A stretch of 64,000 nt of DNA from Longimicrobiales bacterium (GTDB taxonomy: Bacteria > Gemmatimonadota > Gemmatimonadetes > Longimicrobiales > Gaopeijiaceae). Below, piece after piece: positions 20,766 through 58,916 of this stretch (position 1 is the stretch's first letter; each line of letters opens with the position of its first letter). The notes under the pieces are model-generated. The model was given only the letters and a program-made list of their open reading frames with translations. It searched no databases and was not told the origin of the DNA. The translations under genes and the position numbers were made by a program. The stretch covers positions 2,688,001 through 2,752,000 of the forward strand of contig CBDFIQ010000002.1 of the NCBI GenBank assembly GCA_965248195.1, given 5' to 3'.

Positions 20766-21151
20766 ATGTTCAGGAAAAACCCGATCCCCGTCGCCCTGCT
20801 GTGCATCGCCCTGCTTGGGGCATGTACAGATCAGGCCGACTCCGTATTCGAGCCGAGCTCCGAAGTCGCATTCGGTCGCGACGGGGAGGGCTCGTGCGGC
20901 GCCATCTCGGCGCTCACGAGGAATGTCTACGTCGGCGCCGACCTCAGTCCGATCTTCGAGGTCGACTTCAACAATCCTCTCGCCGTCGTTCAAGCCGCCG
21001 CCGGCGTTTGGGCTGAGGTTCAGAGCACCCGCTTCGAGGAGAGGGCCGTAGTCCTGGTCGACGAGATCGAGGAGCGACGGCCCCACCTGATCGGTCTCCA
21101 GGAAGTGGCGAGGTTCATCACGATCGATCCCGCGACTGGGGCCCCTACGGC
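20766..21151 (+). pseudogene. 5' part of a lipoprotein EEP-family gene interrupted by the ICE
   Basis: Lipobox LLGAC and EEP N-terminal motifs TRNVYVG and PHLIGLQEV; the host sequence ends at the att core (codons APTA). Confidence 0.9.
21141..21151 (+). repeat. Left att core GCCCCTACGGC
   Basis: Identical to 58062-58072 and in the same reading frame of the split gene. Confidence 0.9.
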
Positions 21152-21622
21152 ACAGTACAGATGGCGTGAATCACGGCAAGGAATCGTCTAAGTTCAACTA
21201 GGACTGCACGATCTGCCGCACTTGCCGTTCGACGATATCTGACTCCACCGTACTGAAATAGCCGTGCTGCCGGCATCGAATGGCGGGAATTCGGGTCGCA
21301 TCACGTTCCATCCGAGGGGCGCTGCGCAGCACCACGAGGAAAGTGCTTCCAGCTCAAGGGTGATGGCAGCGGGGATAAGGCGTCAACACTGCAATTCATG
21401 GCTGACCTCGGAAGTGGTGTCATGGGGGAGTGACGGAAGTAAGAAGGTGCGGCAGAAGTGACCGAGGTCCACGGCCACGGCCAACGTCGACCATACGCCT
21501 GCACGAGGAGGCCGAGACCCTCAGGCTCGCCATCGATACGGCCAAGCTGCCGGCCGGTGTCTCGCCGCACCCCAATCAGCATCGCCTAGGGCGGCGGTCC
21601 AAGTCCCCGTTGACGTGCCTTT

Positions 21623-22200
21623 CTAGAACGAGTCCATCAGCGAAAAGTGGTGATCACCTGTGGCAACGAACTGATCGAACTCGCACCCACGCTGGCATGC
21701 CAAGCCGACACGCTGATCCATGATGCCCGGATAGTACCGAAAGCGTTGGACGCCGAGGTCACTCTGCCCGGCGATCCCCGTCACCATTGAGATCATGTGG
21801 AACACCTCGAGGGACGCCAAGTTGGCGCTGAAGGGGAAGACATTCTCGCGCCGATGTAGAGGACTCCCGGCATCAAGCCCAGCCATGTAGCTGGGATCGT
21901 CAAGCAGGCCCGCCTGATCGAGCGAGACCGTGTTCTCGTCGTAGGCTCCGAGGCAGCGCAGGCACGCTCGGCCAGGCGCCACAGTCTGAACTTGCCAGTC
22001 CGCACCGCGGAACTGGCACTAGATGGCTGTAGGCCAGGAAGTTGAGCACGTGCCGTGGGTGGGGCCGATCGACACAGCTGAACAGGATGTCACAGTCCAG
22101 CGCTGCCCGGTAGCTATCCGGATGGGAGATTCTTTCCGGTACGACACGCAGGTCGAGCGCCGCCGCCGTTGCAACATGAGGCGACGTGCCTTTCCCCCGG
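21623..22200 (-). pseudogene. ThiF/E1-like adenylyltransferase, C-terminal fragment
   Basis: [16 protein letters not shown], then in a shifted frame [10 protein letters not shown]...ENVFPFS; 5' part missing. Confidence 0.75.
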
Positions 22201-22456
22201 GTGCTCACCCGGGATTCGCTGGTTATTGCTCAGCGGACAGGTACGTCGCCTCTCTTTTTACACACCCTTTGATCCTACCTCCGGCCGCAAGCCACAGGAT
22301 GGACGCCAACTGTAATCCTGCACCCATCAGTCGCAGTCCGGCTACCCTACTCCTCTGCTTCTCCTCGAAGACGACATACCACCTGGCTCCGAGAAGGAGG
22401 AAACCCGTGTCACGCCGTTCGTCGCAGGCCACCTGCGCCACGGTGCGCCAACGATA

Positions 22457-23832
22457 GGTAGTGTCCCTAGATTTGTGTAAAAGCGGATAAGCTGGACAGG
22501 AGGGAAAGAAAAACGGAAGCTCCTCTGTTGTTGTTCACTGTCACATGAACCCGGGAGTCCGGGTCTGCAGAGCAGGCTCGGAACCGGAGAGGAGCTTCCG
22601 ATGCAAGAGATTGTGGAGATCGGTCGGGCCACGCAAGACGAGCTACGCGATGATTTGCGCGAGCTGTTTCAAGGCGCGATCCGGCTGACGCTCGAGATGG
22701 TGCTGGAAGAGGAGCTGAAGGCCATGGTAGGTGCACGCCGCTTCGAGCGGGTGGGAAGCCGGAAGGACCATAGGAACGGCACATACCTGAGGCGGCTGCT
22801 GACGAGCCTGGGGCAGATCGAGGTCGCCATGCCCCGGAGCCGGGACAACGGTTCGCCGGCCGACGTGATCGGCCGCTACCAGCGCAGGAGCCCCGAGCTC
22901 GACGAGATGATGGTCGAGGCGTATGTGAGCGGCGTGTCACAGCGCAAGATGGGCGACGTCACCGAGGCGCTGATGGGCGAGCGTGTTGGGCGCTCGACGG
23001 TGAGTCGTGTGGCAAAACGGCTCGACGAGGCCGTGGAAGGGCTGCGCCGTGCGCCGATCGAGGGGCCTCACCCCTATCTGTACCTGGACGCCACGTTCTT
23101 GGACGCCCGCTGGGCCCGCAAAGTCGAGAACGTGAGTGCGCTCGTGGCGTATGCAGTGGGCCCTGAGGGTCACCGACGGCTCCTGGCCGTCACGCTGGGC
23201 GCTGAGGAGTCGCAGCAGAGCTGGTCGGAGCTCCTCGAGCAACTCCAGGACCGCGGCCTCGGCGGTGTCGAGCTCGTGATCGCCGATGAGCACGCAGGCC
23301 TGGCAGCTGCGGTCCGCCGCTTCCTGCCCGAGGCACGCCGTCAGAGGTGTACGGTCCATCTGCAGCGTAATGTGGGGGCGAGGGTCCCCCACCGCCTACG
23401 CAAGCGCGTGGCGCGTGAGGTCTCGGTGATCTTCCAGACATCCGGACTCGCCGAGGCGAAGAAGCTCCTGGGCGAGTTCGGCGCACGCTGGAAGAAGGAG
23501 CTGCCCGAGGCCGTGGAGGTCCTGGAGCGGGGCTTCGGGGCAGCGACGCAGTTCTACGCGTTCCCCGAGGCGCACTGGCCCCGGCTGCGTACCACCAACA
23601 GCCTCGAGCGGCTGCACGGCGAGATCAAACGCAGGATCAAGGCCGCCGGCGCCTTCCCGGACCGGGCCAGCGCCCTCAGGCTCATCACGGCCGTCGCACT
23701 CAGGACCACACACGTCTGGGGCGACCGGCGTTACCTCGACCTCTCACTCCTCCAGAAACAGGAGGTCGCCCAAGCAGCCTAGCCGAAGGCGAGGAGCTTC
23801 CTCCGCTTTTACACACAAATCGGGACTTGACC
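22457..23832 (+). mobile_element. IS256-family element, copy 1 (1376 bp)
   Basis: Ends GGTAGTGTCCC.../...GGGACTTGACC; 8-bp TSD CAACGATA. Confidence 0.95.
22601..23782 (+). CDS. IS256 transposase
   Basis: RNG, YLYLDA, QRCTVH and RTTNSLERLHGEIKRR. Confidence 0.97.
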   Translation: MQEIVEIGRATQDELRDDLRELFQGAIRLTLEMVLEEELKAMVGARRFERVGSRKDHRNGTYLRRLLTSLGQIEVAMPRSRDNGSPADVIGRYQRRSPELDEMMVEAYVSGVSQRKMGDVTEALMGERVGRSTVSRVAKRLDEAVEGLRRAPIEGPHPYLYLDATFLDARWARKVENVSALVAYAVGPEGHRRLLAVTLGAEESQQSWSELLEQLQDRGLGGVELVIADEHAGLAAAVRRFLPEARRQRCTVHLQRNVGARVPHRLRKRVAREVSVIFQTSGLAEAKKLLGEFGARWKKELPEAVEVLERGFGAATQFYAFPEAHWPRLRTTNSLERLHGEIKRRIKAAGAFPDRASALRLITAVALRTTHVWGDRRYLDLSLLQKQEVAQAA

Positions 23833-24301
23833 CAACGATACCCCCTCTCGACGGCTTTACTGGCACGCCGGAGAAGGCGAAAGAGCGCGACGAACGTCTC
23901 CAGAACCAGACCCATGCCCACGCCGGTGGTGATGAGGATGATCCACCAGGCCCTGCCTAGCGGTCCCAGACTCCAGAAGTCTTGCCTCAATGAGATGGAG
24001 AGAAGAAGGGGAAAGACCAGGATCAACACGGCAAGCGTGCCGCTGCGGACTATGTTCCAGACGTCGCCCTGTAGTCGTTCCAGCCCCGGAGGAGGCCAGC
24101 GGAGGCTGGATCCCGTGGACGGTGCCTGCCCATCAACGTTGTCACCGGATTGATCCATGGCCTCTCTTTTTGCTAGGTGTGAGCCACCAGCAAATACCGT
24201 GTCAACGGCCATCGAAAGCTGCACAGGTCTTGGAGTGAACCCTACAAAGTGGACACAGAGGGGGCGATGGATTGACCTTCCGTAATCACTCGGGAGGTTC
24301 G

Positions 24302-24664
24302 ATGACGGTTCGACGACACACGAGGTACAGCACGGAGTTCAAGATCCAGCTGGTCCAGGCGTACTTGGATGGAGAAGGCAGTGCGAGGGCGATCGCTACT
24401 CGACACAGTGTACCTCACTCCCTACTCATGATCTGGGTCAAGAAGTACGGGGAAGGCGAACTTACGGAGGAGATCCACCTGCAGGAGCAAGTTGTCGAGG
24501 ACCAGGCCAAGATCGCGGCACTCGAGCGCAAGATTGGTCAGTTGACGATGGAACTCGACGCCATGAAAAAAAGGGCTCTGATACAGCCGTCACAGAAAAG
24601 CGCGCGGCCGTCGATCATCTCCGGGCCAGGGGTGTCCCTGTCCGACGGGGATGCAGCCTCATGA
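24302..24664 (+). CDS. IS3 transposase OrfA
   Basis: RYSTEFKIQLV HTH; LERKIGQLTMELD coiled coil. Confidence 0.9.
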   Translation: MTVRRHTRYSTEFKIQLVQAYLDGEGSARAIATRHSVPHSLLMIWVKKYGEGELTEEIHLQEQVVEDQAKIAALERKIGQLTMELDAMKKRALIQPSQKSARPSIISGPGVSLSDGDAAS

Positions 24665-25455
24665 ACATCCCGAGGAGTACCTTCTACAAGCGACCGGATG
24701 CGGCCTGCGAGACCGCTCGGGAGAGAGCGGACGGGGACCTGCGCGTGCGGATCGAAGACATTCTCGCCGAGTTCCCCGCCTACGGATATCGCCGGGTCAC
24801 GCACGAACTCGGGAGACGCGGCCTGGTGGTCAATCACAAGCGAGTCTCCAGGATTATGCGTGAACACGCGCTTACGCCCCACCGCGTACGCGCATGGCTT
24901 GCTACGACGAACAGCAATCACAAGCAGCGCATCTACCCGAACCTGAGGTCGTCGATCACGCCCGAGGGGCCTGACGAGCTCTGGGTGGCCGATCTGACGT
25001 ACATCCGGCTCACGACCGGCTTTGTTTTCCTAGCCGTCGTGCTCGACGTGTGGTCGCGGCGTGTCATTGGCTACGCCATCAGCCATCTCCTGGACGTGCG
25101 TCTTTGCCTGGCCGCACTCGATGCCGCACTCGAACTTCGGCAGCCGCGGTCTGGCCTCATCCACCACTCCGATCGCGGCGTCCAGTATGCATCCCAATTG
25201 TACCGTTCACGTCTCGCCGAACACGGTGTCCGAGGATCGATGTCCCGGCGGGGCAACCCGTACGACAACGCCCATGTTGAGAGCTTTTTCAAAACCCTGA
25301 AGCACGAGGAGATCTTGGCAAACGACTACAGCACAATTGATGACGTAGCCAACCGACTCCCCCACTTCCTTGAGGAGGTGTACAATCGAAGACGCTTGCA
25401 CTCCTCGCTCGGTTACATGCCACCTGAGGAATTCGAGAGCATTCATGCAGCTTGA
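24661..25455 (+). CDS. IS3 transposase OrfB (DDE), probably fused to OrfA by a -1 frameshift
   Basis: YGYRRV, WVADLTY, HHSDRGVQY and DNAHVESFF; the -1 frame is open from 24571. Confidence 0.93.
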   Translation: MNIPRSTFYKRPDAACETARERADGDLRVRIEDILAEFPAYGYRRVTHELGRRGLVVNHKRVSRIMREHALTPHRVRAWLATTNSNHKQRIYPNLRSSITPEGPDELWVADLTYIRLTTGFVFLAVVLDVWSRRVIGYAISHLLDVRLCLAALDAALELRQPRSGLIHHSDRGVQYASQLYRSRLAEHGVRGSMSRRGNPYDNAHVESFFKTLKHEEILANDYSTIDDVANRLPHFLEEVYNRRRLHSSLGYMPPEEFESIHAA

Positions 25456-25513
25456 AGCCACTGACTGGTCAATCCAACCAACTCTCGTTGTCCACCCTCA
25501 GGGGTTCACTCCA

Positions 25514-26276
25514 CTCGACGAGGTCCTCACCGGCGTCGATGGCGGCGGCGTCACTGCCTCAGAGGCCATTGAACAGCTTCTGGGCGCCCAAATCATGCTC
25601 CGCAACAACCGACGACTTCAGGCCGCGATGCGCTCGTCCCGGTTGCCGACTATCAAGACGCTCGAAGACTTCGACTTCAGCTTCCAGCCCTCGATCCAGC
25701 GAGATCAGATCGACTCGCTCCACGAGCTCGGCTTCCTGGAGCGCAAGGAAAACGTGATCTTCCTCGGCCCACCGGGCGTCGGCAAGACACATCTCGCGAT
25801 CAGTCTCGCGATCGAGGCAGCCCAGAGCGGCCGTAGGGTCTACTACGGGACGCTCGCTGACCTCATCACTTCGCTCGAAGAAGCGAAGTCCGCTGGTAGG
25901 TTCGGCCACCGCCTCAAGACGCTGACCTATCCGTCTCTGCTCGTCGTCGACGACGATCGGTTATCTACCGGTCGGCCCGACCGGCGCCATGCTCTTCTTC
26001 CAGCTCATCAATCGACGCTACGAGCACGCCTCTACCGTGCTCACTTCCAACAAAGGGTTCGAGGAATGGGGCGAAATCCTGGGCGACGAAGTCATGGCCG
26101 CTGCACTCATCGACCGCCTCGTCCATCACTGCCACATCGTCAACATCCGAGGCAACAGCTTCCGGATGCGTCATCACACCGAACTCTCCAAAGCCCTCCA
26201 CTCGCCTCCTTCGGAGTCGAGCTCTTCACACCCACGGTCTAGGAGAAGAAAACAAAAGGAGAAAACGACGACTTAG
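25514..26276 (+). pseudogene. istB: IS21 helper ATPase IstB, 5'-truncated and frameshifted near 25950
   Basis: FDFSFQP, GPPGVGKT, a broken VVDEIGY, TSNKGF and LIDRLVHH. Confidence 0.9.
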
Positions 26277-26630
26277 AGGCCCGTCACCTCCCGCCGAAAT
26301 GTGTGACATTTTCAACCGGCACATGTGTGACATTTTCAACCGGCGTTGACACCATGGCTCCTTCTGATGGTTAGTGTTCCAGCAAACCACTTTCACCATT
26401 CGAATGCTCCGTTGAGATTACATGGGCACCCTAACGACGACGCTGCCTGTCTAGTGGGGCGGTCTATTGGGTTAGCTCCCGGGGTGGCCGGGGTTGACCG
26501 GTCGTTTCGGAGGCAGACGGGAGCGAGGCCATGAGCGACGCCCCGCTGGCGGAATGGCTCGCCCGCTACCGGCCGCCTAATTGGAGTTTGAATGCGGTAC
26601 CCAAGCGACCTGCTCCGACCGCGCAATGCG

Positions 26631-26819: not shown

Positions 26820-27224
26820 CGTGCCTTCCTTCGTTTCGCGGCTGTAGAGTTCAAGAACCCAATGGCGGAGCTCGACCCGGTTCCAGTACGTGAATAGACC
26901 ACCTGGGATATCCCGTCGCTGACCATGATTGACATCGCGCGAAGGAGGCTCCTGATTGTAACGGGTAGGGAGAACCATCGAGCAGATGCGGGTGGCCGCG
27001 TTCCAGGACCCGGACAGGCTGCGGGAATGGCTCCTCTTCAAGCTCCCTTGTTCTACACGGGCGCCGATAGCTAGGGACTCAGGGAGGCGGAGCGGCGATG
27101 ATCGCCCAACTCCAGGGACGCGAGAAAGGCGCTCGAGCCCTTCGCGTGGAAGGGCGCCGGGCCGAATGGATCGTCTTCGCCTGTCTACACAGCGGCGTCT
27201 TCATACGCGACCAGAGGTCCCGGT

Positions 27225-28600
27225 GGTCAAGTCCCGATTTGTGTGTAAAAGCGGAGGAAGCTCCTCGCCTTCGGCTAGGCTGCTTGGGCGACCTCCTGTT
27301 TCTGGAGGAGTGAGAGGTCGAGGTAACGCCGGTCGCCCCAGACGTGTGTGGTCCTGAGTGCGACGGCCGTGATGAGCCTGAGGGCGCTGGCCCGGTCCGG
27401 GAAGGCGCCGGCGGCCTTGATCCTGCGTTTGATCTCGCCGTGCAGCCGCTCGAGGCTGTTGGTGGTACGCAGCCGGGGCCAGTGCGCCTCGGGGAACGCG
27501 TAGAACTGCGTCGCTGCCCCGAAGCCCCGCTCCAGGACCTCCACGGCCTCGGGCAGCTCCTTCTTCCAGCGTGCGCCGAACTCGCCCAGGAGCTTCTTCG
27601 CCTCGGCGAGTCCGGATGTCTGGAAGATCACCGAGACCTCACGCGCCACGCGCTTGCGTAGGCGGTGGGGGACCCTCGCCCCCACATTACGCTGCAGATG
27701 GACCGTACACCTCTGACGGCGTGCCTCGGGCAGGAAGCGGCGGACCGCAGCTGCCAGGCCTGCGTGCTCATCGGCGATCACGAGCTCGACACCGCCGAGG
27801 CCGCGGTCCTGGAGTTGCTCGAGGAGCTCCGACCAGCTCTGCTGCGACTCCTCAGCGCCCAGCGTGACGGCCAGGAGCCGTCGGTGACCCTCAGGGCCCA
27901 CTGCATACGCCACGAGCGCACTCACGTTCTCGACTTTGCGGGCCCAGCGGGCGTCCAAGAACGTGGCGTCCAGGTACAGATAGGGGTGAGGCCCCTCGAT
28001 CGGCGCACGGCGCAGCCCTTCCACGGCCTCGTCGAGCCGTTTTGCCACACGACTCACCGTCGAGCGCCCAACACGCTCGCCCATCAGCGCCTCGGTGACG
28101 TCGCCCATCTTGCGCTGTGACACGCCGCTCACATACGCCTCGACCATCATCTCGTCGAGCTCGGGGCTCCTGCGCTGGTAGCGGCCGATCACGTCGGCCG
28201 GCGAACCGTTGTCCCGGCTCCGGGGCATGGCGACCTCGATCTGCCCCAGGCTCGTCAGCAGCCGCCTCAGGTATGTGCCGTTCCTATAGTCCTTCCGGCT
28301 TCCCACCCGCTCGAAGCGGCGTGCACCTACCATGGCCTTCAGCTCCTCTTCCAGCACCATCTCGAGCGTCAGCCGGATCGCGCCTTGAAACAGCTCGCGC
28401 AAATCATCGCGTAGCTCGTCTTGCGTGGCCCGACCGATCTCCACAATCTCTTGCATCGGAAGCTCCTCTCCGGTTCCGAGCCTGCTCTGCAGACCCGGAC
28501 TCCCGGGTTCATGTGACAGTGAACAACAACAGAGGAGCTTCCGTTTTTCTTTCCCTCCTGTCCAGCTTATCCGCTTTTACACAAATCTAGGGACACTACC
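27225..28600 (-). mobile_element. IS256-family element, copy 2
   Basis: Inverted copy with 9-bp TSD GGTCCCGGT. Confidence 0.95.
27275..28456 (-). CDS. IS256 transposase
   Basis: Same protein as copy 1 except H>Y (KDYRNG). Confidence 0.97.
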   Translation of the reverse strand: MQEIVEIGRATQDELRDDLRELFQGAIRLTLEMVLEEELKAMVGARRFERVGSRKDYRNGTYLRRLLTSLGQIEVAMPRSRDNGSPADVIGRYQRRSPELDEMMVEAYVSGVSQRKMGDVTEALMGERVGRSTVSRVAKRLDEAVEGLRRAPIEGPHPYLYLDATFLDARWARKVENVSALVAYAVGPEGHRRLLAVTLGAEESQQSWSELLEQLQDRGLGGVELVIADEHAGLAAAVRRFLPEARRQRCTVHLQRNVGARVPHRLRKRVAREVSVIFQTSGLAEAKKLLGEFGARWKKELPEAVEVLERGFGAATQFYAFPEAHWPRLRTTNSLERLHGEIKRRIKAAGAFPDRASALRLITAVALRTTHVWGDRRYLDLSLLQKQEVAQAA

Positions 28601-28821
28601 GGTCCCGGTTCCCAGATGCGCATCCTGAACAGGTACGCTGCGGCGTCCACGCCCTGATCGCACGGGGCATGGCGACCGACGAGATGGCCCGAATTGAGGA
28701 GGCCATCCTTCGGGGCGATGGGTGGGTGCTCGGAGAGTATGGTGGTCTGCAGGCCGCCATGAAGCGCAGCGTCGCGCTGAAGAAGCAGGCGCGCCAGCGG
28801 AGCGTATCATCGCCAAGCCGG

Positions 28822-28970: not shown

Positions 28971-29090
28971 TGCCGTTCGCTTCTACGTCCGCCGCCGCAG
29001 ATCCTTACTGGGATAGTAACAGCCCCACAAAAACAGCACCAAAATCGGCCCACGGCGCACATTCGTTATGATTGCTGTACGTTGCGAAGA

Positions 29091-29545
29091 AAGGAATCCC
29101 CGATGAAGGAATCCCCGATGAAGGAATCCCCGATGAAGGAATCCCCGATGAAGGAATCCCCGATGAAGGAATCCCCGATGAAGGAATCCCCGATGAAGGA
29201 ATCCCCGATGAAGGAATCCCCGATGAAGGAATCCCCGATGAAGGAATCCCCGATGAAGGAATCCCCGATGAAGGAATCCCCGATGAAGGAATCCCCGATG
29301 AAGGAATCCCCGATGAAGGAATCCCCGATGAAGGAATCCCCGATGAAGGAATCCCCGATGAAGGAATCCCCGATGAAGGAATCCCCGATGAAGGAATCCC
29401 CGATGAAGGAATCCCCGATGAAGGAATCCCCGATGAAGGAATCCCCGATGAAGGAATCCCCGATGAAGGAATCCCCGATGAAGGAATCCCCGATGAAGGA
29501 ATCCCCGATGAAGGAATCCCCGATGAAGGAATCCCCGATGAAGGA
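29091..29545 (+). repeat. Perfect tandem array, 30 x AAGGAATCCCCGATG
   Basis: Identical 15-bp units from 29091 to 29540, plus a partial AAGGA. Confidence 0.97.
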
Positions 29546-30305
29546 TATGCGTCGAGTCCACGCCGAACAACTGATGTCGTCGCTGGAGCTGTCACTGCCC
29601 CCGGTGGCCATCGCGTTCTGTGACGTCGTGCCGGACGACGTGCCGATGTTTGAGGGGGTGGTTCCCGCAGGATGCGCGTTCTGGCCGCAGGCCACGGCGC
29701 GCACCTTCGCGACAGCAGCCCGTGACCACGCCCTGTGCGCGATTGGCATCCACACGCACAATCTCTCGGGCGCGGCGGCCTCGCAGCCGGATGAGTTGCA
29801 AGCCTCCCTCAAGGCCATGATGGGACTCGATTACGTACGCGAGGAAGAAATCGCCGCCATTCCGGTCATGCAGGACAAGCTGGCCCATGCGCTCTACGGT
29901 CCGCTCGCGGACTTCCCGGTCCAGCCCGAGGTCGTCCTGGTGTTCGCCCACGCGCAACACGGGCTCATCCTGAGTGAGGCCGTCGCGCGCGTCGATGGCG
30001 GCACACCGCCGGCGATGGGGCGACCGGCGTGTGCCATCGTCCCTCACGTGCTCAATCAGCGGCGCGCGGCCATGAGCCTAGGGTGCTGCGGCGCGCGTGC
30101 CTACCTCGATGCGTTGACGGACGATGTAGCGCTATGGGCTCTGCCGGCACATTGCCTCGACCAGTACTGTGAGCAGATTGCCGCATTCGCTGATGCGAAC
30201 AGGACGCTCACGGCGTTTCATGAGCGTCGGCGGCAGGATGTCGAGTCTGGCCAGAGACCGACGGTCCAACAGTCGCTCGAGCGGCTGTCGGAGCCAGCGC
30301 CGTAA
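29538..30305 (+). CDS. DUF169 family protein; the array could extend it by (MKESP)n
   Basis: PPVAIAF, GCAFW, CAIG, YGPL, PEVVLVF, GRPAC and SLGCCGAR Cys pattern. Confidence 0.8.
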   Translation: MKDMRRVHAEQLMSSLELSLPPVAIAFCDVVPDDVPMFEGVVPAGCAFWPQATARTFATAARDHALCAIGIHTHNLSGAAASQPDELQASLKAMMGLDYVREEEIAAIPVMQDKLAHALYGPLADFPVQPEVVLVFAHAQHGLILSEAVARVDGGTPPAMGRPACAIVPHVLNQRRAAMSLGCCGARAYLDALTDDVALWALPAHCLDQYCEQIAAFADANRTLTAFHERRRQDVESGQRPTVQQSLERLSEPAP

Positions 30306-30835: not shown

Positions 30836-30971
30836 GCTTACCGCTGTCGTTCCTTAAGGATCCGTTCCAGCGCTTCCACGCCGAGCGCCTGAAGACTGGT
30901 GTCCTCGTCGAGGGAGAGCTGTCGCAGTTGCCGGTGTAGTTTTGGCTGGAGTCGGAGCAACACTCCTTTCA

Positions 30972-32347: not shown

Positions 32348-32452
32348 CTCCTTTCATCGCTCCAGTGTTAGCGGACGGTGCCATCTTCTCGCGCGGGCGC
32401 TTGTCAGCGCGCGCCGCGCCATGCACTGCGTCGGCAAGACTGGATTTACGCT

Positions 32453-33340: not shown

Positions 33341-33413
33341 ATCAGAGTCGACCGGGAAGGTTAAAGGAACTGTCAGGCGTCATTGCTCAAGCTCACCTCC
33401 ACCGATTTGACGC

Positions 33414-40438: not shown

Positions 40439-40457
40439 ACCCCAAGGAGGAGAGAGA

Positions 40458-43488: not shown

Positions 43489-43494
43489 CACGCC

Positions 43495-45626: not shown

Positions 45627-45643
45627 CAAACAAGGAGCTCATC

Positions 45644-46552: not shown

Positions 46553-46570
46553 GCCCCGGGAGCGACTGTC

Positions 46571-47581: not shown

Positions 47582-47592
47582 AGGAGACGTCC

Positions 47593-49190: not shown

Positions 49191-49485
49191 GCGGCGCGCG
49201 ACTTACGGCCGCACTGGAGTGCGCAAACGACGCGGGGGTACGATTCACACTTCGGCGCCCCGGCGATTCACACGGAGCTTCCCGCCTATCCGCTGGCGCC
49301 GCAGCGTCTTGCGCTTCCGCGGACAGGCCGGCCAGCGCTGTACGGGCGGCACCGTCCGTGGTGGGAGCGACCCCCCAGTCCGAGGGCCTGGTACGGGTTC
49401 GGGGCCAGGTGTGTTTGCGCACCTGCCCCCGCCCTCCTGGGGTCGCTCCCGAGCCATCGATCCTTCCAGGAAGGGTGTTGGACCG

Positions 49486-51522
49486 ATGAGGCCGGCTACG
49501 CTCGCCATCATCGGCACCGCTCTGGGAGCGGCCGCCGGCCACGCGTTCTGGGCACCGTTCCCCGGCATGGGCGGCAACCCGGTTCTGGACCTGATCGCCT
49601 ACCACGATCCGGGCCTTCACACGGTGATCCGCGTCTGGTACTACGCGGCCCCGGCCGTCGTCGTCGTCCTCGCCGGGAGCGTGTGCCTCTCGGTCTGGAG
49701 GGTGTGGCTTCAGCCGCGTGCAAGACGCCGCGGCCGGGGCAGCCTGCCCGCCTGGCCCACCTCGCCGAACGATGCCGCGCCCTCGCTCGTGATCGGCGAG
49801 CTCCACCATCCCGTCGTCCCGCGCGAGAGCGAGCGGCCCTCCTGGCTCGTCGTTCCCGAGACGGGGCTCTACACCGGCGTCCTCGTCGTCGGCGCCGTCG
49901 GCACCGGCAAGACCACCGCCTGCATGTACCCGTTCGCCCAGCAGCTCCTCTCGTGGCAAGCCGACCGGGCCGGGCGCCGGGCCAGCGCCCTTGTGCTCGA
50001 GGTCAAGGGCGACTTCTGCTACAGCGTGCGGGGGATCCTCGACGCCGCCGGGCGCGGCGGCGACTACCTCGAGATCGGGCTCGACGGCTCGTTGCAGTGG
50101 AACCCGCTCGACGATCCGCTGCTCGACTCCTACTCGCTCGCCTACGGCGTCGCCTCCCTCATCAACCAGCTCTTCGGCAAGAGCCGAGAACCGTTCTGGC
50201 AGCAAGCCTATACGAATCTCGTGCGCTGGATCATCGAACTGCACCGGCTCTTGCCGGGGGGCTGGGTCACGCTGCAGGACATCTACCGCTGCACGGTGGA
50301 TGCGGAACTGTTCGGCCGGAAGATCGGCGAGGCCCGCGAGCTGGCCGACCGGCTCTGCCCGGTGCGGGCCGTCATCGCGACCAAGGATCTCGCCGCTCAC
50401 AAGGAACCCCTCGGGGAATGGGGCTGGGAGCCGGTGCCCGGCTCGGACAAGGCGGCTTGCCGGCTCGACCCCGCACTCCGGGACCGGCTCAAGGAACTCA
50501 AGGTCGCATACGCGACGGAGGAGAGCGGGGGCGGCGCGGGGAGCGAGTTCCGTGAGCAGGTCGAGGCCATCGAGCGGTGGTATCTGCATGACTGGACGGC
50601 GCTCGACGCCAAGCTCCGCACGTCGATCGTCGAGGGCATCAGCGTGTTCCTCTCGCTCTTCGACCAGCCGCAGGTCGCCGGCGTGTTCTGCCCGCCGCCT
50701 CCCGAGCCGGATGAGTCTATATATATAGGTGACGATGCACCGGACGAGGACGCCGAGGCCGTCCGGCCCGTGCCGGGCCTCCGGCGCCGGCTGCCGCCGC
50801 TCAGCGAGCTGATCGAGGGCGGCAAGGTCCTGGCGCTCAACATGCCCGCGGGCGCGAACCCCGCGCTCGCCCGCGCCATCGGCGTCCTCTTGAAGAACGC
50901 CTGGATGCAGGCGCTGCTGCGGCGGCCCGCCGAGGCCGCCCGCCGGCCCGGACGCTACCTCCGACCCGCCGTGTTCATCTGCGACGAGTACCAGGCGTTC
51001 GCGACCGTCGGCCAGGACGATCCCTCGGGCGACGAGAAGGCGTTCGCGCTCACCCGGCAGTGCCGCTGCGTCCCGATCGTCGCCACGCAGTCGATCTCCT
51101 CGCTCCGCTCCGTGCTCCCCGGAGGCGAGGCCTGGCGCACGCTCCTCCAGACGCTCCGCACCCGGATCTTCCTCTCGCTGTCCGACGAGTCGTCGGCCCG
51201 GATCGCGTCCGAGATGTGCGGCAGCGTCATGAAGACGCAGCCCTCCTACACGTTCACCGAGACCACGGGCAGGCCCGAGTTCTCGCTCTTGTCCGGGCGA
51301 GCCGGAGGGGGCCGCGGCACGATCGGCGCGAGCAAGTCGTTCCGGCAGCAGAGGGAGCCCGTGTTCACGCCGCGCGAGTTCGCGCTGTTGGCCAACTACC
51401 AGGCGATCTGTCTGCCCTACGACGGCACGAAGTCGCTCCCTGCCCGGCGCGTCTACCTGAAACCCCACTACCTGCCGAGGGACGTGGGCTACTGGCGGCT
51501 CCGCGAGGAGGGACGGATATGA
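49486..51522 (+). CDS. virD4: VirD4/TraD-like coupling protein
   Basis: N-terminal TM segments, GAVGTGKT, WNPL, FICDEYQ and ATQSIS. Confidence 0.88.
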   Translation: MRPATLAIIGTALGAAAGHAFWAPFPGMGGNPVLDLIAYHDPGLHTVIRVWYYAAPAVVVVLAGSVCLSVWRVWLQPRARRRGRGSLPAWPTSPNDAAPSLVIGELHHPVVPRESERPSWLVVPETGLYTGVLVVGAVGTGKTTACMYPFAQQLLSWQADRAGRRASALVLEVKGDFCYSVRGILDAAGRGGDYLEIGLDGSLQWNPLDDPLLDSYSLAYGVASLINQLFGKSREPFWQQAYTNLVRWIIELHRLLPGGWVTLQDIYRCTVDAELFGRKIGEARELADRLCPVRAVIATKDLAAHKEPLGEWGWEPVPGSDKAACRLDPALRDRLKELKVAYATEESGGGAGSEFREQVEAIERWYLHDWTALDAKLRTSIVEGISVFLSLFDQPQVAGVFCPPPPEPDESIYIGDDAPDEDAEAVRPVPGLRRRLPPLSELIEGGKVLALNMPAGANPALARAIGVLLKNAWMQALLRRPAEAARRPGRYLRPAVFICDEYQAFATVGQDDPSGDEKAFALTRQCRCVPIVATQSISSLRSVLPGGEAWRTLLQTLRTRIFLSLSDESSARIASEMCGSVMKTQPSYTFTETTGRPEFSLLSGRAGGGRGTIGASKSFRQQREPVFTPREFALLANYQAICLPYDGTKSLPARRVYLKPHYLPRDVGYWRLREEGRI

Positions 51523-51859
51523 AGCGCGCAAGCGGGATCGGCCACCTGAAGCCGTTCCTTCCGGGCCTGGAGACGCTCCTCGAGGACCCGGAGGTCTCCG
51601 AGATCATGATCAACGGACCCGGCAACGTCTGGATCGAGCGAGGCGGCCGGCTCGAGCCCCACGAGGCGCCGGGACTCACCGCCGCCTGGCTCCACCGCGC
51701 CGCGATCCACATCGCCCGGCCGCTCGGCCTCGATCCCGCCGCCAGACCCATCCTCGATGCCCGTCTCGAGGACGGCTCAAGGGTCGCCATCTGCACGCCG
51801 CCCGCGAGTCCCGAGGTCGCCATCACCATACGCCGGTTCGGGGGCCGCGCGTTCTCGGC

Positions 51860-53235
51860 GGTAGTGTCCCTAGATTTGTGTAAAAGCGGATAAGCTGGAC
51901 AGGAGGGAAAGAAAAACGGAAGCTCCTCTGTTGTTGTTCACTGTCACATGAACCCGGGAGTCCGGGTCTGCAGAGCAGGCTCGGAACCGGAGAGGAGCTT
52001 CCGATGCAAGAGATTGTGGAGATCGGTCGGGCCACGCAAGACGAGCTACGCGATGATTTGCGCGAGCTGTTTCAAGGCGCGATCCGGCTGACGCTCGAGA
52101 TGGTGCTGGAAGAGGAGCTGAAGGCCATGGTAGGTGCACGCCGCTTCGAGCGGGTGGGAAGCCGGAAGGACCATAGGAACGGCACATACCTGAGGCGGCT
52201 GCTGACGAGCCTGGGGCAGATCGAGGTCGCCATGCCCCGGAGCCGGGACAACGGTTCGCCGGCCGACGTGATCGGCCGCTACCAGCGCAGGAGCCCCGAG
52301 CTCGACGAGATGATGGTCGAGGCGTATGTGAGCGGCGTGTCACAGCGCAAGATGGGCGACGTCACCGAGGCGCTGATGGGCGAGCGTGTTGGGCGCTCGA
52401 CGGTGAGTCGTGTGGCAAAACGGCTCGACGAGGCCGTGGAAGGGCTGCGCCGTGCGCCGATCGAGGGGCCTCACCCCTATCTGTACCTGGACGCCACGTT
52501 CTTGGACGCCCGCTGGGCCCGCAAAGTCGAGAACGTGAGTGCGCTCGTGGCGTATGCAGTGGGCCCTGAGGGTCACCGACGGCTCCTGGCCGTCACGCTG
52601 GGCGCTGAGGAGTCGCAGCAGAGCTGGTCGGAGCTCCTCGAGCAACTCCAGGACCGCGGCCTCGGCGGTGTCGAGCTCGTGATCGCCGATGAGCACGCAG
52701 GCCTGGCAGCTGCGGTCCGCCGCTTCCTGCCCGAGGCACGCCGTCAGAGGTGTACGGTCCATCTGCAGCGTAATGTGGGGGCGAGGGTCCCCCACCGCCT
52801 ACGCAAGCGCATGGCGCGTGAGGTCTCGGTGATCTTCCAGACATCCGGACTCGCCGAGGCGAAGAAGCTCCTGGGCGAGTTCGGCGCACGCTGGAAGAAG
52901 GAGCTGCCCGAGGCCGTGGAGGTCCTGGAGCGGGGCTTCGGGGCAGCGACGCAGTTCTACGCGTTCCCCGAGGCGCACTGGCCCCGGCTGCGTACCACCA
53001 ACAGCCTCGAGCGGCTGCACGGCGAGATCAAACGCAGGATCAAGGCCGCCGGCGCCTTCCCGGACCGGGCCAGCGCCCTCAGGCTCATCACGGCCGTCGC
53101 ACTCAGGACCACACACGTCTGGGGCGACCGGCGTTACCTCGACCTCTCACTCCTCCAGAAACAGGAGGTCGCCCAAGCAGCCTAGCCGAAGGCGAGGAGC
53201 TTCCTCCGCTTTTACACACAAATCGGGACTTGACC
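51860..53235 (+). mobile_element. IS256-family element, copy 5
   Basis: TSD TTCTCGGC/CTCTCGGC (7 of 8 match). Confidence 0.95.
52004..53185 (+). CDS. IS256 transposase
   Basis: Same protein as copy 1 except V>M (RMAREV). Confidence 0.97.
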   Translation: MQEIVEIGRATQDELRDDLRELFQGAIRLTLEMVLEEELKAMVGARRFERVGSRKDHRNGTYLRRLLTSLGQIEVAMPRSRDNGSPADVIGRYQRRSPELDEMMVEAYVSGVSQRKMGDVTEALMGERVGRSTVSRVAKRLDEAVEGLRRAPIEGPHPYLYLDATFLDARWARKVENVSALVAYAVGPEGHRRLLAVTLGAEESQQSWSELLEQLQDRGLGGVELVIADEHAGLAAAVRRFLPEARRQRCTVHLQRNVGARVPHRLRKRMAREVSVIFQTSGLAEAKKLLGEFGARWKKELPEAVEVLERGFGAATQFYAFPEAHWPRLRTTNSLERLHGEIKRRIKAAGAFPDRASALRLITAVALRTTHVWGDRRYLDLSLLQKQEVAQAA

Positions 53236-53906
53236 CTCTCGGCTCAGGACCTGGTGCGCATGGGCTCGCTGCCGGAGACGGTCCTCGGGGCCGGCCGGTC
53301 GGCCCTCTTGGCCCGCAGGAACATCCTGGTCTCCGGAGGCACGGGCTCGGGCAAGACGACGCTCCTCAACGCGCTGATCGAGTTGCTGCCAGAAGACGAG
53401 CGGATCGTCGCCATCGAGGACACGCTCGAACTCAGGATCGACCGCGCCAACTGCCTCCGCTTCGAGGCCGGAGCTGTCGGCACCGAGACCTCCGTCTCGA
53501 TCCGCGACCTGGTGCGGCACGCGCTGCGCCACCGGCCCGACCACATCGTCGTCGGCGAGGTCAGGGGCGGCGAGGCCGCCGATCTGCTCCAGGCGCTCAA
53601 CACCGGCCACGGCGGCTCGCTGACCACCATCCACGCGAACAACGCCCGCTCCGCGCTCTCGCGCCTGGCGAGCTGCGCCATGCAGGCCGAAGGCGCGCTT
53701 CCCTGGGAGGTCACCTGCCGGGGCGTCGTGGACGGGATCGCACTTGTGCTGCACACGACCCGGCAACGGGGCAGGCGGTTCGTCGAGGAGGCGCTCGAAG
53801 TGCGCGGCTACGACGCGGCCAAGGGCCGCTGGATCGCCGAACCGATCTGGAGCGGGTCTGACGAAGCCCCGCAAGAACAGCACCCACACACCAAGGAGGT
53901 GAACCC

Positions 53907-54107
53907 ATGAAAGGCGACGAGAACATCGTTCGCGTCGAGACGCTCGATGACTTCGACCGCGAACTCGCGCGCGACGGAGGCGAGGCCCTCGAGGTGCCGG
54001 CCTCGCTGGCCGAAGAGTACGGCCTCTTCTCCGAGGACGTGGGCAGCGAGGACGAGATCCGCGACGCCGGAGAGGATCCGCACGGCCCCGAGGAGGAAGA
54101 GCTATGA
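53907..54107 (+). CDS. Small acidic protein
   Basis: AAGGAGGT RBS; ATGA overlaps at both ends. Confidence 0.7.
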   Translation: MKGDENIVRVETLDDFDRELARDGGEALEVPASLAEEYGLFSEDVGSEDEIRDAGEDPHGPEEEEL

Positions 54108-55132
54108 AACACGACGAATACCACCGCCAGTTCGCCGAGGGGATCATCGAGCAGATCCGCCAGGGCACCGCGCCGTGGCAGAAGCCCTGGGGGCCGGGCG
54201 AGCGCGTGCTCCCCTCCAACGTCGATAGGGGCCGCTCCTACAGGGGCGGGAACAGCCTGCATCTCGCCGCCGTGCAGCAGGAGCGTGGCTACGGCGACGT
54301 GCGCTGGGGCACCTACCGCCAGATCCAGGCCCAAGGCGGACAGGTGCGCAAGGGCGAGCAGGGCACTCGCATCCTCTCGTTCCAGGACCACCGGAAGATC
54401 GCCGTCAACGACGAGCGCGGACGGCCCAAGAGGGACAACGAAGGCAAGCGCGTTTACCGCCACGAGCGCCTCCAGGCGCCCTTCGTCCGCCAGTACACCG
54501 TGTTCAACGCCGAGCAGGCCGACGGGCTCCCGGCCCGGCCCACACCCACGGCCGAGCCGCTCTGGAAGGTGCACCAGCAGGCCGAACGCGTCCTCGTGGA
54601 CAGCGGGGTCCCCGTCCGTCACGTGGCGGGCGACCGGGCGTTCTACAACCTGAACCGCGACGAGATCGTGCTGCCCGAGCGTGGACAGTTCCCCTCCGCG
54701 AACCACTACTACCAGACCGCGCTCCACGAGCTGGGGCACAGCACCGGCCACCCGGAGCGGATGAACCGCCCAACACTGATCGAAGGGATCGGCGACGGGT
54801 TCGCCTCACCGGCCTATGCGAAGGAGGAGCTCCGCGCCGAAATCAGCGCCATGATGACAGGCGAGCGCGTGGGCGTCGGCCATGACCCGAGCCGGGGCGC
54901 CGCGTACGTCGAGGGGTGGGTCGCCGCGCTCGAGGAGGATCCGCGCGAGATCCGCCGCGCCGCCGCCGACGCGCAGAAGATCTCCGACTTCGTGCTCTCG
55001 CGGCACCGCGAGCGCGAGGCCGTGCGCGAACCCGCGGCCGTGGCCGCGACCCGCGCGCCCGCGCCGGGGCGGATCGTCCATCCCGTGCCGCCGCTCCCCG
55101 TGCCGGAGCGGACCTTCGGGCCGCGCCGCTGA
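54104..55132 (+). CDS. ardC: ArdC-type ssDNA-binding antirestriction protein with a zincin-like domain
   Basis: APWQKPW, YRGGN, WGTYRQ, VRKGE, VFNAEQ, HELGHSTG and YAKEELRAE. Confidence 0.92.
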   Translation: MKHDEYHRQFAEGIIEQIRQGTAPWQKPWGPGERVLPSNVDRGRSYRGGNSLHLAAVQQERGYGDVRWGTYRQIQAQGGQVRKGEQGTRILSFQDHRKIAVNDERGRPKRDNEGKRVYRHERLQAPFVRQYTVFNAEQADGLPARPTPTAEPLWKVHQQAERVLVDSGVPVRHVAGDRAFYNLNRDEIVLPERGQFPSANHYYQTALHELGHSTGHPERMNRPTLIEGIGDGFASPAYAKEELRAEISAMMTGERVGVGHDPSRGAAYVEGWVAALEEDPREIRRAAADAQKISDFVLSRHREREAVREPAAVAATRAPAPGRIVHPVPPLPVPERTFGPRR

Positions 55133-55153
55133 CGGTCGGTGAGGAGCCAGGAG

Positions 55154-56041
55154 ATGTTCGACCGCACGGTCGAACCGGACCCGCGGACCGCCGCGCCACA
55201 AAGCCGCAATCGCTACCGCATGCGGGACGGCCACCGCCGAGAATACGCCGCGAGCCGGGACCGCGGGTCCACCTCCTTCCCCGAACGGTGCGCGCGCGGG
55301 CTCGCCGACATCGGCGTCTACGGCGCCGTCTCGTACCGCGACCTCGCCGAGGCCCGCTTCGGCGGCCATCCCTACACCACCCGGCGGGCCGTGAACGCCT
55401 GGGTACGCGACGGGCTCGTCACCGAGACCACGGCCACCGGACCCGGGGGCAACCCGTTCAAGGTCCTGACGCTCACCCGCAGCGGCGTGGCCGAGGCCCG
55501 GAAGCGGGCCGCCGAACGGGGGATGGATCCCAGCCAGGAAATCCGGTTCGCACGCACCCGGCCTGCCGAAGCCGCGCACGACACCGCCGTCTACCGCGCC
55601 TGCATGAAGGAGAAACAGCGCCTGCTCGAACAGGGCGCCACCGTGCGGCGCATCCGGCTCGACACCGAACTCAAGAGCGCCGTCGCGCGCGGGAGCGAGG
55701 CGGCGCGGCTGAAGGACGGCAAGCGGGCCGCCGATGCCGAACGGCACCGCACCGCCGGCGAACTCGGACTCCCCCTCGACGACGAAGGGCACGTGCTCTA
55801 CCCGGACGCCCAGATCGAGTACACCGACGCCGACGGCCGCACTGGACGCGTCAACATCGAGGTCGCGTCCGGCAACTACCGCGAAGGGGCCATCAAGGCG
55901 AAAGCGGCGGCCGGGTTCGCGCTCCACGCCAACGGACCGGCCGCGGCGCGGCTGCTGCGCACGCTCGGCCTTGGCGGCGGCGGCGACCGCTCCTCGCTGC
56001 GGGGACCCGCCCACCGCGATCCGGCCGCAGTCGAACTCTGA
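55154..56041 (+). CDS. Winged-helix + PD-(D/E)XK-like protein (Replic_Relax/MOBC-like relaxase candidate)
   Basis: wHTH-like segment (GLV...VLTLTRSG), AHDTAVY and YPDAQIEY...VNIEV; GAGGAG RBS. Confidence 0.6.
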   Translation: MFDRTVEPDPRTAAPQSRNRYRMRDGHRREYAASRDRGSTSFPERCARGLADIGVYGAVSYRDLAEARFGGHPYTTRRAVNAWVRDGLVTETTATGPGGNPFKVLTLTRSGVAEARKRAAERGMDPSQEIRFARTRPAEAAHDTAVYRACMKEKQRLLEQGATVRRIRLDTELKSAVARGSEAARLKDGKRAADAERHRTAGELGLPLDDEGHVLYPDAQIEYTDADGRTGRVNIEVASGNYREGAIKAKAAAGFALHANGPAAARLLRTLGLGGGGDRSSLRGPAHRDPAAVEL

Positions 56042-56059
56042 CTACGGGAGAAGCCCGCC

Positions 56060-56374
56060 ATGCAACCCTGGAAGATCAGCGCCGGCCTCACCGCCGCCAT
56101 CGCGGGGTCTGCCGTGCTGCTCGCCGGGCCGCGCCTCGAATACCTCGCGCCGTATTGGCCGCTCCTCCTCGCCGAACACGGCGTCTTGCTCGCCCTCCAC
56201 CTGGCGCTCGCACTCGCAGCCGTTGCGGCCGCCATCTACGCCGTCGCACGCGCCGCCGGGCTCGCCGACCTCGGCCGGCGCGTCGATCTCGCCGAACGCT
56301 CCGTTCGGCGCGGCGAGGGGGACCCGGCCCTCACCGACGCGCTCCGCAGAGACGCCGAGGGCGACTGGGAATGA
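56060..56374 (+). CDS. Small membrane protein
   Basis: Two hydrophobic segments; ATGA overlap with the next gene. Confidence 0.65.
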   Translation: MQPWKISAGLTAAIAGSAVLLAGPRLEYLAPYWPLLLAEHGVLLALHLALALAAVAAAIYAVARAAGLADLGRRVDLAERSVRRGEGDPALTDALRRDAEGDWE

Positions 56375-56811
56375 AAGCGGAGACCGGGCGGGCGGCGGGC
56401 CGACGGGATCGACCCAACCGTGCGCGCACACCTCGCGGCGCGTCCGTCGAGACCCTGCCAGCCACCTGGCGGACGCAGGCCAAGGCGCTCCGCCGGTACG
56501 GGGGCGAGACGCCGGCCGTCGCGCTCGAAAGCTGCGCGGCCGAGCTCGAGGCCACGCTCAGGGAGAGGGACGAGACCACCCTCTCGCTGACGGAGGCCGC
56601 CAGGGAGAGCGGCTACTCCGCTGACCATCTCGGCCGCCTCGTGCGCGACGGCAGGATCCCCAACGCCGGAAGGCCCGGCGCGCCCAGGATCGCCCGCAGC
56701 CACCTGCCACGGAAGGCACCAGCCGAGCCGCCACTGGTCAACGAGCTTCGTCCGCGCCAAGTTTCAAACGCGCAGATCGTGCAGTCCATCATCGAGAGAG
56801 GAATCGAATGA
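56371..56811 (+). CDS. Excisionase-like HTH protein
   Basis: LSLTEAARESGYSADHLGRLVRDGRIP; overlaps the integrase start. Confidence 0.7.
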   Translation: MKAETGRAAGRRDRPNRARTPRGASVETLPATWRTQAKALRRYGGETPAVALESCAAELEATLRERDETTLSLTEAARESGYSADHLGRLVRDGRIPNAGRPGAPRIARSHLPRKAPAEPPLVNELRPRQVSNAQIVQSIIERGIE

Positions 56812-57971
56812 TGGCACGCACGAAACCTATCCGGCGCAGCTACGGCGCTGGCGAATGGGGCCGGAACCGGGTACGGGTCTTTCCCGATCCCAAGACCGGC
56901 CTGTTCCAGATCGAGTGGCGCGACAACGGGCGCAGGCTCACAAGGTCGCTGAAGCACCGCGACTGGAGACGGGCGAAGCGGCAGGCGGACGAGTTCGCCG
57001 CTGGCTACCTCGGGCCGGATCTCCACCGCAAGGCGGACGCCGAGCCCGAGCCACTCACCCTGGAGACGCTTTTTGACATCTACGGTGAAGAGGTGACGCC
57101 CACCAAGCGTGGGCAGTCGCGGCTGCACGACAGGGCCGCGATGAGGATGTTCCTCGGGTGCTTCGGCAGGGACCGGAAGCCCGCAACGCTCTCCCAGCGC
57201 GACTGGGACCGGTTCATCCGGGAGCGCCGGGCGGGCAGGGTTGGCCCGAGCGGCAAACCCGTGTCCGACCGGATGATCGAACGGGACTTGAAGTTCCTGC
57301 TCGCGGTCCTCAACTGGGCCGTGAAGTCGAGGGACGAGCGGGGCGAACTGCTCCTCGGCTCGAACCCGCTCAAGGGCCTGAAGACGCCCACGGAGAAGAA
57401 CCCGACACGGGTGATGCTTACCGAGGAAGAATACCGGGTCCTGCTCCACGTGTCTCTGGAGATGGACTGGCGCTTTCACGTTGCTCTGGTCCTCGCACAC
57501 GAGACAGGACACCGCATCGGCGCCATCCGTCAGCTTCAATGGTCGGACATCGACCTTGAATGCGGAGTGGTGCGGTGGCGCGCAGAGCACGACAAGTCGG
57601 GCTACGAGCACCGGACGCCGGTCACCGCCGAGGCGCTCGCCGCCCTAGAGGAGGCGCGAAAGAGGAATCCCGGGATCGGGGACGCGCCCGTGCTGCCCTC
57701 GCCGCAGGATCGCTCGAGGTGCGTGAGCTGTTCGTGGACGCAGCGCTGGTGGGAGAAGGCCGTAGCGCTCGCAGGGCTGGAATCCAAGCGTGGCCGCGGC
57801 TGGCACTCCCTAAGGCGGAAGTTCGCCTCCGACCTCATGGACCAGCCGCTCAAAGTGCTCTGCGAACTCGGCGGTTGGAAGGAGGCCAAGACGGTGCTGC
57901 ACTGCTACCAGCGGGCCGATGAGGCACAGCTCAGGAAGGCTCTGGAAAGCCGCCGCAGAGTTCGCGCCTGA
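56808..57971 (+). CDS. int: Tyrosine integrase
   Basis: TGHRIG, DKS, HSLRR, GW and Y catalytic set; ends 90 bp before the att core. Confidence 0.93.
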   Translation: MMARTKPIRRSYGAGEWGRNRVRVFPDPKTGLFQIEWRDNGRRLTRSLKHRDWRRAKRQADEFAAGYLGPDLHRKADAEPEPLTLETLFDIYGEEVTPTKRGQSRLHDRAAMRMFLGCFGRDRKPATLSQRDWDRFIRERRAGRVGPSGKPVSDRMIERDLKFLLAVLNWAVKSRDERGELLLGSNPLKGLKTPTEKNPTRVMLTEEEYRVLLHVSLEMDWRFHVALVLAHETGHRIGAIRQLQWSDIDLECGVVRWRAEHDKSGYEHRTPVTAEALAALEEARKRNPGIGDAPVLPSPQDRSRCVSCSWTQRWWEKAVALAGLESKRGRGWHSLRRKFASDLMDQPLKVLCELGGWKEAKTVLHCYQRADEAQLRKALESRRRVRA

Positions 57972-58061
57972 GACCAATCAGCGGGAATCAAACGGCGGGA
58001 ACCCGGTTGGGTACGTCCGTAAGTTCAATTACCCCAAGCAGATGTGAACCTGTCGGCTTCT

Positions 58062-58072
58062 GCCCCTACGGC
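58062..58072 (+). repeat. Right att core GCCCCTACGGC
   Basis: Identical to 21141-21151. Confidence 0.9.
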
Positions 58073-58916
58073 CTCGCTCGATTTCCTCTCCATTCTCGAC
58101 GCGGAGATGGTGGATCGCGGATTACGCTACGAGATCGTCGAGGTGCAGGAAAACACCCGGGTTACCCTGCCCGTGGCCATTGATTTCGGGACCGGTATGG
58201 TTTCGGAGGCTATTGATTTCACGGACAGAGACGTCGTGTTGGCGCGCTCGGACGTAACGATCACGAATATCGCCAGCGGTAACTATCAGGCCGTTGTCCC
58301 CGTGGGCCCTGTGACGCTGAAGAGGGGTTGGATTCGGGTGGAGGCGGACTACAGGGGCCAAATCTATAACTTCGTGAACACGCACCTGGAGGTTCAGTCG
58401 ATCGCGCCGGTGCAGGCGGCCCAGTTGCAGGAGTTGCGCGGGAGCGTGCTCGCGGGGCTGGACGGCGTGACGATTCTCGCAGGGGATCTCAATTCCGATG
58501 CAGAGGCCGGCCCTGGTGATCCCTCCTGGACACCGACGTACGGTGAGCTGATCACCGCGGGTTTCGTGGACACGTGGGATCAGGTGCACCCGCATCGGCC
58601 CGGATTCACGTGTTGTCACGATAAAGACCTACGCAACCTTCGGGGGGCCTTCGATGAACGCATCGACTTCGTCCTGGTCCGTGACGATCGTGGCCCCTTC
58701 GATCAGCGGGTGATCGAGGCGGTTCGAGCACAGGTCGTAGGCGACGAAACCGACGACTTGACCACCAGTGGCCTTTGGCCTTCGGACCACGCTGGGGTGA
58801 TCTCACGCATCCGGCTCGTTTCGCCGACGTTGGCGGACGATGACGATGACGACGACGATGATGACGACGACGATGACGACGATAACGATGACGATGACGA
58901 CGACGATGAACGTTAG
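58062..58916 (+). pseudogene. 3' part of the split EEP-family gene, with a poly-Asp tail
   Basis: NTHLE, AGDLNS, ERIDFV and PSDHAG motifs. Confidence 0.9.

Follow-up and report, generated by a model that had tools for sequence, protein, structure and literature searches.

A 36.9-kb integrative and conjugative element (ICE) splits a lipoprotein gene in frame in a genome of the Longimicrobiales (GenBank assembly GCA_965248195.1), and we consider it likely, with a probability of about 75%, that this is the recent opportunistic insertion of a now decaying ICE into a non-essential gene, a chance knockout and not a selected switch. The gene encodes a member of the endonuclease/exonuclease/phosphatase (EEP) superfamily. 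We call the whole 64,000-nucleotide stretch that was analysed (contig CBDFIQ010000002.1) the window and the genome that holds it G000; coordinates without a contig label are window positions.

The element is bounded by two copies of the 11-mer GCCCCTACGGC, the left junction core at 21141-21151 and the right junction core at 58062-58072, both on the plus strand. The left open reading frame (ORF) begins at 20766 and covers 125 codons ahead of the core (5′ half of the gene, 20766-21149, plus strand), its frame continuing to a stop at 21191 inside the element, and the 3′ half lies at 58062-58916 on the same strand. Joining the flanks gives a stop-free frame of 409 amino acids, to which 114 of 120 homologues retrieved with the right half align in a single segment over the junction; the best of them, P0001, is 78.7% identical over residues 1-377. 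At the junction the frame is one residue longer than in the closest homologues; the extra residue falls in a turn and has a counterpart in other homologues. An earlier, sequence-only reading of this DNA had proposed that an ICE-type element between the two 11-mers splits a gene in frame, and had staked this on the joined ORF aligning as one EEP homologue; position, frame and the homologues bear the proposal out.

The assignment of the product to the EEP superfamily (PF03372) is made from a Pfam match, conserved residues and a predicted fold. The right half matches PF03372 with 27.7 bits against a cut-off of 24.5, and in an alignment of 44 homologues N53, E113, H233, D267, N269 and the terminal D-H pair are invariant, as is the Cys of the lipobox L-G-A-C visible in the sequence. 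The predicted model of P0001 (pLDDT 81.6) finds its structural matches in TDP2 and bacterial EEP proteins (best E 6e-15), suggesting a DNase I-like fold for this homologue, and the nearest solved structure by sequence is the uncharacterised EEP protein 3teb (E 3e-5). The lipobox and EEP motifs that had been read from the 409-residue ORF are therefore upheld by their invariance. The presumed active site is divided between the halves, with the signal peptide, the lipobox, N53 and E113 on the left and H233, D267, N269, D327 and the terminal pair D367/H368 on the right, and in the P0001 model the break falls in a turn between two strands. As had also been noted, the element does not duplicate the gene end, and a restoring site of the tRNA type was rejected for that reason. 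We found no second copy of the EEP gene in the G000 genome, and a scan of 20400-21500 for sigma-70 promoters and terminators found nothing. The C-terminus consists of about 25 aspartates in a row (58835-58910), and a short direct repeat of about 25 bp is seen by eye upstream of the start codon (20640-20700).

The 11-mer by itself is weak evidence. Allowing up to one mismatch, GCCCCTACGGC has five matches in the window against 2.4 expected, and at least five were found in 9 of 100 shuffles; its exact copies in the 4.86-Mb genome number 8, where about 10 are expected. We give the count alone no meaning, and the case stands on position and frame. A third exact copy, inverted on the minus strand within the element (39486-39496), is probably due to chance (0.13 expected per window); alternatively, it is possibly an internal secondary site or the source of a changed overlap.

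The 7-bp strand-exchange overlap, CCCTACG, lies within the core at 21143-21149 and 58064-58070, and its limits were taken from the element's relatives. A scan of GTDB genomes yielded 516 relatives of the integrase, and the ends were analysed in the best 80 of them, which come mostly from metagenome-assembled genomes of Longimicrobiales and other Gemmatimonadota, with a few from Gammaproteobacteria, and 10 of which are from one genome. These relatives point to a Longimicrobiales-type host. In the aligned right ends, arm-like repeats are followed by TGC or a similar triplet and seven variable bases; the left ends carry the same seven bases and then GCA. Because the bases outside the seven vary with the host, the overlap is seven bases long. 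Right ends could be anchored in 75 of the 80 loci and carry 35 distinct 7-mers, a number that is approximate, as some anchors may be off by one base. The flanks differ between all 11 loci with CGCGTAG and between all 5 with CCGTCCG, and 79 flanks formed 57 clusters. Left ends bear the same small set of words as right ends, and the overlap is common to both members of four co-oriented pairs of ends, which are separated by 12-60 kb (two pairs in G041, one each in G042 and G044). In these four pairs and in both elements of G000 the overlap is alike at both junctions and natural to the target; a homology-free mechanism like that of Tn916 was rejected since paired ends share the overlap.

The places where the homologous integrases insert had been named as a point to check, and they are unrelated sites in many genes, which counts against a switch. 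The other proposal of the sequence-only reading, a new intragenic integration site, is borne out. Among the frames abutting the junctions (149 of 180 scanned), 13 unrelated Pfam families were found in 23 of 66 loci, including integrases, IstB, rhodanese, DctM, DinB, Fpg and TonB receptors; one or two of these matches may be neighbouring genes and not split genes. Three loci (L074, L081 and L116) lie at tRNA-like sequences as judged by eye. The EEP protein had no match in 110 family loci. One overlap variant recurs in a rhodanese-domain gene in several genomes (L030, L032, L044, L049 and L052), and this gene is a better candidate than the EEP gene for a dedicated, possibly regulated, target. 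Other members are inserted in integrase genes of their own family (L025, L028, L031, L033, L059 and L067; L046, L053 and L055). At G041 C1:669072-680953 and 14464/4827850 the flanks of paired elements resemble by eye a mobilisation-protein motif, which presumably reflects insertion into other mobile elements. Right and left ends directly fused in the manner of an attP were seen in chromosomes at G041 C1:23184 and G045 C5:23496, one of them apparently without one overlap base, which suggests tandem arrays or re-inserted circles. Searches with the integrase (tblastn) against a phage collection and a plasmid collection gave no match, and a literature search, with most subscription papers outside its reach, found no description of this ICE family.

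In the explanation that we favour, the tyrosine integrase would act in a lambda-like manner, exchanging strands over a 7-bp overlap that, we infer, must match between element and target. Beyond the overlap it would need little of the target, usually GC on either side, and a genome would thus offer each variant anything from several to dozens of candidate sites, most of them in coding genes. Insertion would knock the gene out, as no replacement for the gene end is carried, and like overlaps at both junctions would allow precise excision. That excision would restore the gene, as had been claimed, follows from the two overlaps being alike and would be a by-product of precise-insertion chemistry.

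To see how often the EEP gene is a target, we searched 300 family genomes with P0001. It had 84 matches in 74 genomes, so the gene is patchy; 80 of the 84 span the site in one piece, the remaining four start at residues 152, 223, 253 and 265, and none is broken at the insertion site. Uninterrupted, distant EEP homologues are held by three of the five genomes rich in elements of this family. Neither the right junction nor the beginning of the EEP right half turned up in exact-pattern scans of JGI metagenomes (0 stretches in each scan). A 14-base left-end pattern occurred in 10 of 401 genomes, about the control rate, and in 10 loci checked the arm motif follows only at the window locus.

Assembled contigs were compared over 57400-59000 for 4 of 24 listed runs, of which X5 and X7 are from two other samples. 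In run X5 a 762-nt contig aligns from 58062 at its base 549, and in run X7 a 554-nt contig aligns from 58062 at its base 217; the upstream DNA of both is unlike the element. Because anchored element ends carry a T at the position before the core, or more matching bases, an alignment starting exactly at 58062 fits the empty allele, and we infer that both contigs probably represent it. They differ from the EEP half in the window at eight positions, including six synonymous ones, with no stop, suggesting that the insertion is recent. A search of relatives for the empty allele had been proposed as a check: the two contigs probably carry it, and in 200 family genomes no DNA copy of the EEP right half came close (>80% across most of the length).

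The overlap of the window element appears to have changed. All three of the integrases nearest to that of the window element (96-98% identical, support 98/93) belong to elements with the overlap CCACTCG, which lie at a P4-type integrase gene in two cases and at an Fpg gene in the third, whereas CCCTACG stands at both ends of the window element; a left end 99% identical to that of the window element also carries CCACTCG. In the putative empty-allele contigs no differing letter is listed within the core, which indicates that CCCTACG is the host's word. A change from CCACTCG to CCCTACG at both ends would need, at this site or a previous one, a mismatched insertion and then repair or excision and re-entry; Rutkai and colleagues reportedly presented a lambda model for such a change of target. 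The window element appears to be a case of natural retargeting, possibly via excision and re-entry. We extend this to the family only tentatively: a widespread ICE family may change its target in nature by rewriting its own 7-bp overlap while the integrase stays nearly constant, adopting after a mismatched insertion the host word at both ends so that the new site becomes a reversible attB, and the window copy would be a fresh retargeting of this kind. If this were true, such elements would knock genes out reversibly and provide points of rearrangement in symbiont-type genomes, and seven bases with minimal flanking needs would suffice to program the integrase.

G000 holds a sister element (C2:1514322-1522531), whose coupling protein, putative relaxase and helix-turn-helix (HTH) gene are 99.9-100% identical to those of the window element. 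Its integrase is only 84% identical, and its overlap is CGCCTCG, the same at both ends. The identical backbone with a differing integrase and attachment module suggests module exchange. The flanks are the two halves of a SAM methyltransferase gene, which an insertion sequence (IS) of the IS256 family also cuts near its end. The left end lies inverted at C2:1954976, 440 kb away, and simple excision of the sister element is therefore no longer possible. An orphan left end at C2:1725113 has an overlap like a tRNA-Ile anticodon loop and no adjoining family integrase. Elsewhere in the genome, 17 tRNA genes are clustered in 2.2 kb (C1:1071378-1073597).

In the window element, the left 15 kb consist of cargo and IS debris and the integrase lies at the right end. 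The conserved left end (21152-21298), with arm-like motifs at 21189 and 21283, has 84% matches at G000 C2:1954981 and C2:1725113 and a 99% match in G044. It is followed by IS256 copy 1 (22456-23833, plus strand), which has an 8-bp target duplication and belongs to a large recent expansion (104 near-identical full-length copies genome-wide); by an IS3-type element with an istB remnant (24197-26325, plus); and by IS256 copy 2 (27222-28603, minus). A DUF169 protein (29082-30305, plus) and a flotillin/SPFH protein (33833-35410, minus) are cargo, with IS256 copy 3 (30971-32351, plus) between them. IS256 copy 4 (36533-37912, plus) lacks a target duplication and coincides with a GC step from 62% to 70%, and together they probably mark an IS-mediated internal deletion of the element.

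On the plus strand to the right of this step lie an AlpA-type HTH regulator (39914-40438), the type IV secretion genes virB2, virB3, virB4, virB9 (CagX), virB10 (TrbI), virB6 and virB8 with an unassigned ORF at 45644-46552 (40383-48261), a VirD4-like coupling protein (49219-51522), virB11 cut by IS256 copy 5 (51519-53910, the IS at 51857-53238), an ArdC anti-restriction protein (54104-55132), a putative relaxase (55139-56041), an HTH_17 protein as candidate excisionase (56371-56811, from a weak PF12728 match and the atlas) and a tyrosine integrase of 387 residues (56808-57971, PF00589). The relaxase has no Pfam or NCBIfam match; a Replic_Relax cluster at atlas rank 10 (score 0.90) is a lead only. 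The integrase retains R236, K263, H333, R336, W357 and Y367, which we take to be the tyrosine-recombinase catalytic set. The conserved right end (57972-58061) has arm-like motifs at 57981, 57995 and 58020, and the conserved motifs repeated at fixed distances in both arms are candidate arm-type sites. The hallmarks of an ICE are present, namely a site-specific recombinase with flanking direct repeats, type IV secretion genes (virB2, 3, 4, 6, 8, 9, 10 and 11) and a VirD4-like coupling protein. The transfer machinery is incomplete: because virB11 is broken by the IS and the sole other virB11 of the genome is internally deleted, this copy probably cannot transfer. An intact virB11 is found in 12 of 80 sibling loci. 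The statement that the integrase and excisionase-like genes are intact while virB11 is IS-broken therefore stands for the integrase and virB11, with the HTH gene as a candidate excisionase.

Several observations weigh against our explanation. No other end with the overlap CCCTACG was found among the 75 anchored ends or in pattern searches of 12 and 401 genomes, so that the EEP gene is the only target seen for this variant, and the count of overlap words is imprecise as noted above. Pairing failed for several neighbouring ends, whose overlaps differ; they are probably nested or rearranged elements. Some variants prefer particular genes (rhodanese-domain genes, istB and P4-type integrases). Excision may still be possible, given that the integrase, both arms and the candidate excisionase are intact. 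In runs X1 and X2, which are from one sample (S1), the EEP contig begins exactly at 58062, and a contig of X2 spans the right junction (58010-58091), so that two upstream forms probably coexist, and this would fit excision. A rival possibility, which this branch would fit, is that the element, carrying the host's overlap word unlike its three nearest relatives, moves in and out of the EEP gene in a mixed population with no dedicated control. Its like ends would agree with later excision and re-entry, or with repair, since ICEBs1 is described as leaving unlike left and right crossovers at a mismatched site (PMC3715440). However, X1 and X2 differ at three positions of the EEP half, and a strain mixture explains the branch at 58062 as well as excision does; repair, or a change at a previous site, could account for the overlap with no cycling; the five IS256 copies accumulated in the element suggest long residence; and no attP contig was among the rows listed. 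We therefore regard such unregulated on/off variation as unlikely.

A switch under host control, in which condition-dependent excision turns on a surface nuclease or phosphatase, was the other proposal of the sequence-only reading, and the evidence does not bear it out. It would account for the in-frame split with a divided active site and no replacement sequence, an arrangement that, according to PMC10111431, is in most cases explicable as regulated gene integrity, and for recombination genes kept intact while transfer is broken. On the other hand, neither recurrence across strains nor a gene-specific integrase clade was found (0 of 110 element loci at the EEP gene, 0 of 84 EEP matches split at the site), near-identical strains appear without the element, the gene is present in a minority of the family genomes, and siblings cause the same kind of break in unrelated genes, the methyltransferase of the sister element being moreover hit by IS256 and left in inverted halves 440 kb apart. 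We consider the switch very improbable. Still less credible is that the 11-mer is a coincidence between unrelated halves, or that the element was misplaced in a repeat-rich assembly. The chance-level frequency of the 11-mer and the 104 IS256 copies would allow it, but a single homologous protein results from joining the halves, each junction coincides exactly with an end position conserved in the family, and the X2 contig runs across the right junction.

Had the switch held up, it would have added a case of regulated gene integrity, but the evidence points elsewhere; the interest lies in the natural retargeting of the family and not in the EEP gene. The ICE family shows target change in natural genomes, with the same enzyme, new overlap words and many broken genes, and offers a test of a long-standing model of how attachment-site specificity evolves. 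It is also a candidate source of a retargetable integrase for GC-rich hosts. For genome scans it brings a caution, because any precise insertion leaves perfect repeats and an in-frame split by default, which on their own are no evidence of a switch.

Excision switches such as sigK/skin, the comK prophage and the nif/hup elements recur at one gene across strains and excise on developmental or host cues. The window element resembles them in its in-frame split that excision would restore, and differs in that no recurrence was found. Tn916 and CTnDOT, like the window family, use many target sites, and Tn916 tolerates unlike overlaps. The same is reported for CTnDOT (PMC2817482). Unlike overlaps at the two ends, the hallmark of this group, are absent from both G000 elements and the four paired sets, in which paired ends share an overlap that matches the host sequence.

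ICEBs1, ICEclc and SXT/R391 resemble the window element in having an integrase and an HTH gene at one end, a type IV secretion system with a coupling protein, and short direct repeats. In contrast to their one conserved primary site, mostly restored, the window family has near-identical integrases at many unrelated coding sites, about 35 overlap words, many copies per genome and nothing restored. ICEBs1 crosses over in 7 bp flanked by short inverted repeats and can also insert within genes, at secondary sites (PMC3715440, PMC5812530). The target is restored by most ICEs, dead-end insertions also occur (PMC5812530), and site-promiscuous clades are mentioned (PMC12884075). Helper-embedded phage-inducible chromosomal islands also break protein genes without replacement sequence, and PMC10111431 describes repeated site switching and off-target events in such a clade. 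Like elements that target mobile-element genes, many siblings of the window family sit in P4-type integrases, istB or an integrase of their own family. Unlike those islands, which are phage satellites, the window element is of conjugative type, in a host gene, with no evident benefit of the break. A parallel in mechanism is offered by the integrase of phage mv4 (bioRxiv 2023.11.06.565760), for which any 7-bp overlap works if attP and attB match, core sites are tolerant, and a change of overlap retargets the enzyme. The mv4 case is a tRNA-Ser-targeting phage reprogrammed in vitro, whereas the window family is an ICE in which retargeting has apparently been repeated in nature.

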